Positions 41,515-45,014 are shown, counted from the stretch's first letter. The stretch is 64,000 nt of DNA from Escherichia coli (GCF_051903065.1 NZ_CP178438.1); one strand, 5' to 3'. Notes: generated by a model from the sequence alone, not told the origin. Translations and numbers: made by a program.

Positions 41515-41949
41515 AGCTTTAATCCTTATTGTTGATGCTTGTTTGCCTGAAAATCAGGCGATTCGTCGTTTTAGTAAACAGTACGAACAGATAAACGGTT
41601 ATTATAATCAACCTGGCTGTGGGTGGCTATAGTTGCGCTTTCTGTACCGGAGAGAAGCTGCGGTACAGAGCATTTTGCGTTATCTACTCTTGACGCCTGC
41701 AAGGGGTAGGTTGGGGAAATATCTTATAGAATCTGACTATGAAACTATTCGTATTAGCTCCGATAAGTTTGATGATGAAAACAGAACTGGCGACAACAAG
41801 TAGCTGCCTTTCTGATGAATTTACCCCAACTTAATATTGTCAACTATCTTCACAGAATCTCCACAATCTCTTCATTATCAGAATATGCACCATGGGTGAT
41901 GCTGCCAACTTACTGATTTAGTGTATGATGGTGTTTTTGAGGTGCTCCA

Positions 41950-42225
41950 GTGGCTTCTGTTTCTATCAGCTGTCCCTCCTGTTCAGCTACTGACGGGGTG
42001 GTGCGTAACGGCAAAAGCACCGCCGGACATCAGCGCTATCTCTGCTCTCACTGCCGTAAAACATGGCAACTGCAGTTCACTTACACCGCTTCTCAACCCG
42101 GTACGCACCAGAAAATCATTGATATGGCCATGAATGGCGTTGGATGCCGGGCAACAGCCCGCATTATGGGCGTTGGCCTCAACACGATTTTACGTCACTT
42201 AAAAAACTCAGGCCGCAGTCGGTAA
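41950..42225 (+). CDS. insA: IS1 InsA (91 aa)
   Basis: Identical protein to the copy 1 InsA. Confidence 0.95.
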
Positions 42226-42647
42226 CCTCGCGCATACAGCCGGGCAGTGACGTCATCGTCTGCGCGGAAATGGACGAACAGTGGGGCTATGTCGGGGCTA
42301 AATCGCGCCAGCGCTGGCTGTTTTACGCGTATGACAGGCTCCGGAAGACGGTTGTTGCGCACGTATTCGGTGAACGCACTATGGCGACGCTGGGGCGTCT
42401 TATGAGCCTGCTGTCACCCTTTGACGTGGTGATATGGATGACGGATGGCTGGCCGCTGTATGAATCCCGCCTGAAGGGAAAGCTGCACGTAATCAGCAAG
42501 CGATATACGCAGCGAATTGAGCGGCATAACCTGAATCTGAGGCAGCACCTGGCACGGCTGGGACGGAAGTCGCTGTCGTTCTCAAAATCGGTGGAGCTGC
42601 ATGACAAAGTCATCGGGCATTATCTGAACATAAAACACTATCAATAA
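42144..42647 (+). CDS. insB: IS1 InsB frame
   Basis: Identical to the copy 1 InsB. Confidence 0.9.
42199..42207 (+). other. IS1 programmed -1 ribosomal frameshift motif (TTAAAAAAC)
   Basis: A6C slippery run in the insA/insB overlap. Confidence 0.85.
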
Positions 42648-42662
42648 GTTGGAGTCATTACC

Positions 42663-45014
42663 AAAAGCCAGTCAGACAGCGCAGTTGTTCGTATAAAAGA
42701 TGTGGCTCGCGTTGAGATGGGCAGTGAAGATTATACCGCTATCGGCAAACTTAACGGTCACCCGTCTGCCGGGGTTGCTGTAATGCTTTCGCCCGGTGCG
42801 AATGCGCTGAATACGGCGACGCTGGTCAAGGATAAGATTGCCGAATTCCAGCGGAACATGCCGCAGGGATACGACATCGCTTACCCGAAAGACAGCACTG
42901 AATTTATTAAAATCTCTGTAGAGGACGTAATTCAGACGCTGTTTGAAGCCATCGTATTGGTGGTTTGCGTGATGTATTTATTCCTGCAAAACCTGCGTGC
43001 CACACTGATTCCGGCGTTAGCTGTCCCCGTCGTTTTGCTGGGCACATTCGGCGTTCTTGCGTTGTTTGGCTATTCGATTAATACCCTGACGTTGTTTGCA
43101 ATGGTGCTGGCGATCGGCTTGCTGGTGGACGATGCCATTGTGGTAGTGGAGAACGTCGAACGCATTATGCGTGACGAAGGGTTGCCCGCGCGTGAAGCCA
43201 CGGAAAAATCAATGGGCGAGATTTCTGGCGCACTGGTTGCCATTGCGCTGGTGTTGTCAGCCGTATTCCTGCCTATGGCCTTCTTTGGGGGATCTACGGG
43301 GGTAATTTATCGTCAGTTTTCGATAACCATTATCTCCGCAATGCTGCTTTCCGTGGTGGTGGCATTGACCTTGACTCCCGCCCTGTGCGGTTCCGTCCTC
43401 CAGCATGTTCCGCCACATAAAAAAGGCTTTTTCGGCGCATTTAACCGCTTTTACCGCCGTACTGAAGATAAATATCAGCGAGGCGTAATTTATGTCCTGC
43501 GCCGTGCTGCTCGAACGATGGGGCTTTATCTCGTACTGGGTGGTGGAATGGCCCTGATGATGTGGAAACTGCCGGGCAGTTTCTTACCCACTGAAGACCA
43601 GGGCGAAATCATGGTGCAGTACACGCTGCCGGCCGGGGCGACCGCTGCCCGTACAGCAGAAGTGAATCGCCAGATTGTTGACTGGTTCCTGATTAACGAG
43701 AAAGCAAATACCGATGTCATTTTTACCGTTGATGGTTTCAGTTTTAGCGGCAGCGGACAGAACACCGGGATGGCGTTTGTTTCGTTGAAAAACTGGTCTC
43801 AACGTAAAGGGGCAGAAAACACCGCCCAGGCTATCGCCCTACGGGCAACCAAAGAGCTGGGCACAATTCGTGATGCCACGGTATTTGCGATGACGCCGCC
43901 AGCCGTTGATGGGCTGGGGCAAAGCAATGGTTTTACGTTTGAATTGTTAGCTAACGGTGGAACCGATCGCGAAACACTACTGCAAATGCGTAATCAGTTG
44001 ATAGAAAAAGCGAATCAAAGTCCGGAGTTACATTCTGTTCGTGCCAATGATTTGCCACAAATGCCGCAATTGCAGGTAGATATTGATAGTAATAAAGCGG
44101 TGTCATTAGGGTTGAGTTTGAATGATGTCACCGACACCCTGTCCAGTGCGTGGGGCGGTACTTATGTGAATGACTTTATTGACCGTGGTCGTGTGAAAAA
44201 AGTCTACATTCAGGGCGACAGTGAATTTCGTTCCGCGCCGTCAGACTTAGGTAAATGGTTTGTGCGCGGTAGTGATAACGCCATGACACCATTCTCTGCT
44301 TTTGCGACCACCCGCTGGCTGTATGGACCGGAAAGACTGGTGCGCTACAACGGTTCTGCAGCCTATGAAATTCAGGGGGAAAATGCGACTGGCTTTAGTT
44401 CCGGCGATGCAATGACAAAAATGGAGGAACTGGCAAACAGTCTTCCTGCGGGAACAACCTGGGCCTGGAGTGGTTTGTCATTGCAGGAGAAACTGGCCAG
44501 CGGTCAGGCATTGAGTCTGTATGCAGTTTCTATTCTGGTGGTTTTCCTCTGCCTTGCAGCACTGTACGAAAGCTGGTCAGTCCCGTTCTCGGTCATTCTG
44601 GTGATCCCTCTGGGGCTTCTTGGCGCGGCGCTGGCGGCCTGGATGCGTGATTTAAACAACGATGTTTACTTCCAGGTGGCGCTATTAACCACTATCGGCT
44701 TGTCGTCGAAAAACGCCATTCTGATTGTGGAATTTGCTGAAGCGGCGGTTGCAGAGGGTTATTCCTTGAGTCGTGCGGCATTACGCGCGGCGCAGACTCG
44801 TTTACGCCCAATCATCATGACCTCGCTGGCGTTTATTGCGGGGGTAATGCCGCTGGCGATAGCAACCGGCGCAGGGGCGAACAGCCGCATCGCCATTGGT
44901 ACGGGCATTATTGGCGGTACGCTGACCGCTACGTTGCTGGCTATTTTCTTTGTTCCTCTGTTTTTTGTACTGGTGAAACGTTTGTTTGCCGGTAAATCGC
45001 GCCGTCAGGAGTAA
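42663..45014 (+). pseudogene. 5'-truncated RND multidrug efflux permease (AcrB/MexB family); only the C-terminal ~780 codons remain
   Basis: Open frame begins at the first base after the IS1 IRR; translation aligns to AcrB from about residue 255 to the C-terminus (conserved AIGLLVDDAIVVVENVER, FIDRGRVKKVY, LCLAALYESWS motifs); N-terminal TM1 and porter subdomain missing; GTG 42702 has no Shine-Dalgarno. Confidence 0.85.

Follow-up and report, generated by a model that had tools for sequence, protein, structure and literature searches.

The stretch of Escherichia coli DNA analysed here (GCF_051903065.1, NZ_CP178438.1; 64,000 nucleotides, hereafter the window) carries two copies of the insertion sequence (IS) IS1, and the second of them occupies the place of the 5′ part of an efflux operon. 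The truncated resistance–nodulation–division (RND) gene that begins at the right end of this copy is eefB of the published eefRABCD operon. Copy 2 has no target-site duplication and stands in for exactly 2,688 bp that are present in the closest IS-free relative, strain ECNB21-M121. The event is a true deletion, neither an inversion nor a translocation, and the eef locus of the window is an operon remnant with no working copy. Among the routes that could have produced it, an IS1-mediated adjacent deletion is considered the most likely, with moderate confidence.

The eefRABCD operon has been described as lying always between fabI and sapF, in strains of phylogroups B2, D, E, F and G (Pugh et al. 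2026, PMC12817139). Its genes are transcribed as a single unit, which EefR represses through the palindrome TGAGAACGATCATTCTCA located before eefR, and certain E. coli isolates carry the operon on plasmids (Shen et al. 2025, PMC12482432). Intact layouts were read in ECNB21-M121 (locus L001) and in O145:H28 strain RM12581. The intact order is fabI (minus strand), a TetR regulator gene of 567 bp, an adaptor (membrane fusion protein, MFP) gene of 1,122 bp, an RND gene of 3,108 bp, an outer-membrane factor (OMF) gene, a major facilitator superfamily (MFS) gene and sapF (minus strand). The 3′ block of the operon (window positions 42663–47700) was searched by megablast in 5,426 complete E. coli genomes, the collection to which all genome counts below refer, and was present at a coverage of at least 80% in 2,041 of them. 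Plasmid matches to the eef block were also seen, at seven places for its 3′ part and two for its 5′ part, in agreement with the earlier report (PMC12482432).

The window shares with the published operon the site between fabI and sapF, the gene order TetR–MFP–RND–OMF–MFS and transcription away from fabI, and the relative ECNB21-M121 carries the exact EefR palindrome. It differs in that the set of five genes with their operator is incomplete: the promoter, the operator, eefR, eefA and eefB codons 1–252 are replaced by IS1, which leaves eefB truncated. The DNA of eefC and eefD is 100% identical to that of ECNB21-M121.

The extent of the deletion was defined by BLAST comparison of the window with ECNB21-M121, which demonstrates both the structure and its exact limits. 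Both flanks of copy 2 are collinear with this IS-free reference, and a contiguous block, L001 9313–12000, is gone exactly at the ends of the element (Table 1). The missing block begins with the 96 bp that precede eefR, in which the predicted promoter and the EefR operator lie, and continues through eefR and eefA into eefB, of which it takes the first 252 codons. The operator, located at L001 9366, has zero occurrences in the window. An initial annotation, made from the sequence alone, had proposed that the 5′ part of the RND gene and presumably its MFP partner had been removed. Both losses are borne out by the comparison, and the TetR regulator, the operon promoter and the operator, which that annotation did not mention, were lost with them. 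Since the remnant EefB residues, eefC and eefD are identical to those of the relative, the event is recent and has not been followed by decay.

Table 1. Features of the eef locus and of the two IS1 copies, with the segments shared with ECNB21-M121 (L001). Positions refer to the window unless L001 is named.
Feature	Position	Strand	Remarks
Segment left of IS1 copy 1	31808-33275		L001 1-1468
IS1 copy 1	33276-34043	-	osmB-yciT intergenic; simple insertion; inverted relative to copy 2
Segment between the IS1 copies	34044-41894		L001 1461-9312; 99.96% identical; 8-bp overlap with the L001 1-1468 segment is the copy 1 duplication
fabI	40726-41514	-	
Retained fabI-eefR intergenic DNA	41515-41894	.	stops 96 bp before the eefR start codon position of intact strains
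Left 9-bp flank of IS1 copy 2	41886-41894	.	tgcaccatg; no duplicate on the right
IS1 copy 2	41895-42662	+	768 bp; IS1A type; both ends complete; insA and insB intact
insA (IS1 copy 2)	41950-42225	+	open reading frame (ORF)
insB (IS1 copy 2)	42144-42647	+	ORF; stop TAA 42645-42647
A6C frameshift motif (IS1 copy 2)	42201-42207		AAAAAAC
Segment right of IS1 copy 2	42663-50000		L001 12001-19338; 100% identical
Right 9-bp flank of IS1 copy 2	42663-42671	.	aaaagccag; eefB codons 253-255
eefB′ pseudogene	42663-45014	+	3′ 783 codons of RND permease EefB; no start codon, no promoter
eefC	45018-46391	+	outer-membrane factor; 457 aa; intact; ORF; WP_000946219.1
eefD	46400-47563	+	MFS transporter; 387 aa; intact; ORF; WP_047624272.1
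sapF	47613-48419	-	
TetR gene, in the missing block	L001 9409-9975		
MFP gene, in the missing block	L001 10124-11245		
RND gene, partly in the missing block	L001 from 11245		

Copy 2 itself is a complete element. Its size and ends agree with those expected of the IS1 family (a length near 768 bp and imperfect inverted repeats of roughly 23 bp at the termini): the left inverted repeat GGTGATGCTGCCAACTTACTGAT is an exact match, and the right end reads ...AAGTTGGAGTCATTACC, the reverse complement of which is GGTAATGACTCCAACTTATTGAT. The arrangement of its reading frames is also that of the family, with insA and insB′ joined by a −1 frameshift at the A6C motif, and RefSeq labels the same element as 'IS1-like element IS1A family transposase, programmed frameshift'. 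Copies 1 and 2 do not differ at any of their 768 bases.

What copy 2 lacks is the target duplication of 8–9 bp that is characteristic of the IS1 family. Its two 9-bp flanks agree at only three of nine positions, which is the chance level, and realignment gave no matching repeat, in accordance with the unrelated flanks that had been noticed from the sequence. Copy 1 serves as an internal control, because it is flanked by a clean 8-bp duplication, CTGCAAAT, which has a single occurrence in ECNB21-M121. The absence of a duplication at copy 2 is therefore real and specific to this copy, and it results from the deletion, in which copy 1 played no part. Over 40 bp, the AT content at the two junctions of copy 2 is 75% and 60%; such AT-rich junctions fit the target choice of IS1 and do not separate the mechanistic routes discussed below.

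The remnant of eefB is open from position 42663, the first base after IS1, through 783 codons to a stop at 45012–45014, and it exactly equals residues 253–1035 of the intact 1,035-aa EefB of ECNB21-M121. From its fourth residue onwards it aligns to AcrB residues 255–1037 (E = 5e-294), so that the frame opening directly behind the inverted repeat and the AcrB match from about residue 255, both recorded in the initial annotation, hold in detail. The remnant is not a full-length RND permease of the AcrB/HAE-1 type, which would have about 1,035–1,050 aa including the first transmembrane segment and the N-terminal periplasmic loop; according to the AcrB alignment, the 252 lost residues cover that segment and most of the first periplasmic loop. 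RefSeq likewise describes an 'efflux RND transporter permease subunit, incomplete, missing N-terminus' beside the IS1A transposase. A naturally short RND gene can be ruled out, as each of the 2,039 genomes that contain the complete block, like both annotated relatives, has the 3,108-bp gene; IS-free relatives carry the full-length 1,035-aa gene.

The right end of IS1 had also been described as fused in-frame into the RND gene. This is correct in that insB and the remnant share a reading frame, but the insB stop codon lies between them, which rules out an InsB–EefB fusion protein. The earliest in-frame starts within the remnant are a GTG at 42702 and an ATG at 42717, neither with a recognisable Shine–Dalgarno sequence.

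The suggestion that ycjD had been removed together with the 5′ part of the operon did not survive comparison with K-12. In K-12 the contiguous order is rnb–yciW–fabI–ycjD–sapF, and alignment with ECNB21-M121 indicates that 651 bp with ycjD occupy the place of a 7,883-bp eef block (L001 9055–16937). No homology to the ycjD region was found in the window, and annotations of ycjD are confined to genomes lacking eef (Pugh et al., PMC12817139). In other words, ycjD and eef are alternative alleles; ycjD belongs to strains without eef, was never present in this haplotype and thus was not deleted by IS1. The left flank of copy 2 had been regarded as ordinary fabI-upstream DNA, which applies only to the 123 bp next to fabI that are shared with K-12. 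Homology ends at L001 9054, and the 258 bp adjoining IS1 (L001 9055–9312) are specific to the eef haplotype.

On the fabI side, the boundary between the two haplotypes (L001 9055–9312 versus K-12, locus L004, 4164–4814) falls 123 bp upstream of that gene's start codon; on the sapF side, it falls just downstream of sapF. For ycjD-type strains, loss of eef has been proposed (Pugh et al., PMC12817139), and eef remnants may be present in the ycjD region.

Copies 1 and 2 are identical and inverted relative to each other, and their recombination could invert the 7.85-kb yciT–pdeR–rnb–yciW–fabI segment between them. Such an inversion has not happened here, since this segment is collinear with ECNB21-M121. 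More generally, the 5′ part of eefB with eefA and eefR might have been moved by inversion or translocation and persist beside another IS1 at a different place in the genome. About 37 IS1 copies per genome would offer many partners for such an exchange, and an identical inverted copy lies only 7.85 kb away. However, nothing else in the window matches the missing block. In the genome collection this block matches 2,041 genomes and is partial in only two records, the weakest being IAI39. The genomes that carry the copy 2 junctions are not among the best 60 of these 2,041 matches; these 60 are full length and at least 99.7% identical. Since the junction-bearing genomes match the query strain at 99.96–100% identity in their flanks, any translocated copy would be expected to head the ranking. 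Composite probes were also used, in which each end of the missing block was joined to both possible IS1 ends, so that a junction would give 75% coverage. Among the matches listed, the best coverage was 52%, and IS1 was not found joined to either end of the block in any of the 5,426 genomes. A small IS1 piece could escape this search in IS1-rich genomes, which weakens it slightly, while the search with the IS1-free missing block is unaffected. An IS1 abutting the missing 5′ half of the RND gene, for which the initial annotation had proposed to look, is therefore absent from the matches listed. The window comparison and the ranked genome matches indicate indirectly that no copy of the deleted DNA is left elsewhere in the genome, and its relocation is regarded as extremely improbable.

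The distribution of the deletion is very narrow. Junction probes of 150 bp of flank and 100 bp of IS1, applied at a coverage threshold of at least 80%, detected both junctions in only two genomes, 23CRST027 (NZ_AP045789.1) and 23CRST031 (NZ_AP045800.1), both from human faeces collected in Santo Domingo, Ecuador. Each chromosome has IS1 at about 37 places. A genome with IS1 at one junction site but not at the other does not occur among the 5,426, and no intermediate with two IS1 copies was recorded. A 36-nt junction probe had no exact match in metagenome contigs. The two junctions provide a clone-specific marker for the 23CRST027/23CRST031 lineage.

The window is 99.98–99.99% identical to the records of these two isolates and identical to neither. 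Of the four IS1 copies that their RefSeq records show at the sites of copies 1 and 2, three have a length of 767 bp and are labelled frameshifted (L003 3531–4299; L005 3531–4299 and 12150–12918), while both copies in the window have 768 bp. The contrast in RefSeq between a 'frameshifted' copy 1 and a copy 2 with 'programmed frameshift' arises because three of the four copies have 767 bp. The difference may be due to assembly errors of 1 bp; alternatively, a sibling isolate or a different version of the assembly may be the source of the window.

An intact IS without a duplication, together with a block missing exactly at its ends, is the textbook outcome of an IS-mediated deletion. IS1 promotes adjacent deletions, and Reif and Saedler reportedly described them in 1975 in the gal region of E. 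coli K-12. In the scheme that is preferred here, IS1 would have inserted in or next to eefRABCD, by simple insertion at one of the two sites, in a lineage with about 37 IS1 copies. By intramolecular replicative transposition, one end of the element would then have attacked a target close by in the same molecule, and the intervening DNA would have been lost as a circle. The product would be a single IS1 without target duplication in place of 2,688 bp; we infer this order of events and the transposase-driven route from the structure of the junction. The initial annotation had named either an IS1-mediated adjacent deletion or recombination between two IS1 copies, and this pair of candidates is retained, as IS1 stands at the deletion junction and both routes give the observed product. 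Missing duplications caused by adjacent deletion or by IS–IS recombination are well documented (PMC11708052). Several points weigh against the preferred scheme: the sequence alone is equally compatible with adjacent deletion, direct IS1–IS1 recombination and a one-step insertion with deletion; the ancestor with the first IS1 insertion was not found among the 5,426 genomes; and the absence of the deleted DNA elsewhere in the source genome is read from ranked BLAST lists.

Recombination would require two independent insertions of IS1 in the same orientation, one 96 bp upstream of eefR and one at eefB codon 252/253, each with its own duplication, followed by RecA-dependent loss of 2.7 kb and one IS1. 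The exact observed product is expected from it, namely the left flank of one insertion joined to the right flank of the other, and it suits an IS1-rich lineage (about 37 places per chromosome) in which the window copies are 100% identical and hence good recombination substrates. The local AT-richness of both junctions would also favour insertion there. Nevertheless, this route needs three events against two, with two insertions in the same orientation within 2.7 kb, and IS1 at a single one of these sites occurs in none of the genomes; it is considered possible but rather unlikely. Still less probable is a one-step event, in which a new IS1 arrives together with the deletion and makes no target duplication, as has been proposed for some IS5 and IS481 movements. 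Deletions centred on an IS movement, with neither a duplication nor any trace of an earlier IS copy, have been reported (PMC11708052), and the lack of any intermediate in the collection agrees with such an origin, although intermediates would be expected to be missing anyway for a clone sampled twice. Against it, all 14 IS150-associated deletions examined in long-term evolution lines of E. coli B arose by insertion followed by adjacent deletion, and five IS1 movements in the same three populations were not tied to any deletion (PMC11708052). The one-step route is not known for IS1, and adjacent deletion by a previously inserted IS1 is favoured over it.

With EefA and the N-terminal quarter of EefB lost, the tripartite EefABC pump cannot form. 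The eefC and eefD genes have lost their native promoter, the only one shown for the operon, as well as their repressor. A scan for an outward promoter at the right end of IS1 found no promoter-like site on the plus strand after position 41929. Judged from the sequence, eefC and eefD are probably silent or weakly read through. EefABC has been reported to confer no antimicrobial phenotype and to export the dyes ethidium bromide and rhodamine 6G (Pugh et al., PMC12817139), while derepression of the operon raises resistance in an acrB-null background (Shen et al., PMC12482432). From these reports, loss of eef is likely to be near-neutral in the laboratory. That the deletion was adaptive, either through unrepressed eefC and eefD expressed by read-through from IS1 or through selected loss of EefABC in a gut-colonising clone, appears very improbable.

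Comparable disruptions of the operon are known. In Shigella dysenteriae, by its published description, an IS likewise replaces the 5′ end of the eef operon, in that case eefR and part of eefA, and the authors read this as loss or degradation of the operon (PMC12817139). The breakpoints differ: about 25% of eefA is kept there, and no truncation of eefB has been reported. The S. dysenteriae event is an independent one that has come close to fixation in its lineage; the present one is found in two isolates. The eef locus of IAI39 (NC_011750.1; L006 8983–12466) was also disrupted by a mobile element, an IS629 (IS3 family) between eefA and eefB that is split by a group II intron (ltrA). Unlike in the window, all five eef genes are full length in IAI39, and the event is independent. 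The classical IS1 adjacent deletions are said to have the same form, with a deletion that starts exactly at an intact IS1 end, the IS kept and the duplication lost. They do not differ in substance from the present case, except that they were reportedly products of laboratory selection and the present case comes from a natural isolate.

Overall, this is an unremarkable loss of genes through IS1 from an accessory operon that was already known, with a pseudogene that is already marked in public annotation, and its significance beyond bookkeeping is small. For annotation, it means that eefB is here a pseudogene and that eefC and eefD stand without their native promoter and repressor. For the operon itself, which has been reported as highly conserved where present, it indicates that occasional degradation by IS elements takes place within E. 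coli, as in this clone and in IAI39, similarly to what has been reported in S. dysenteriae.
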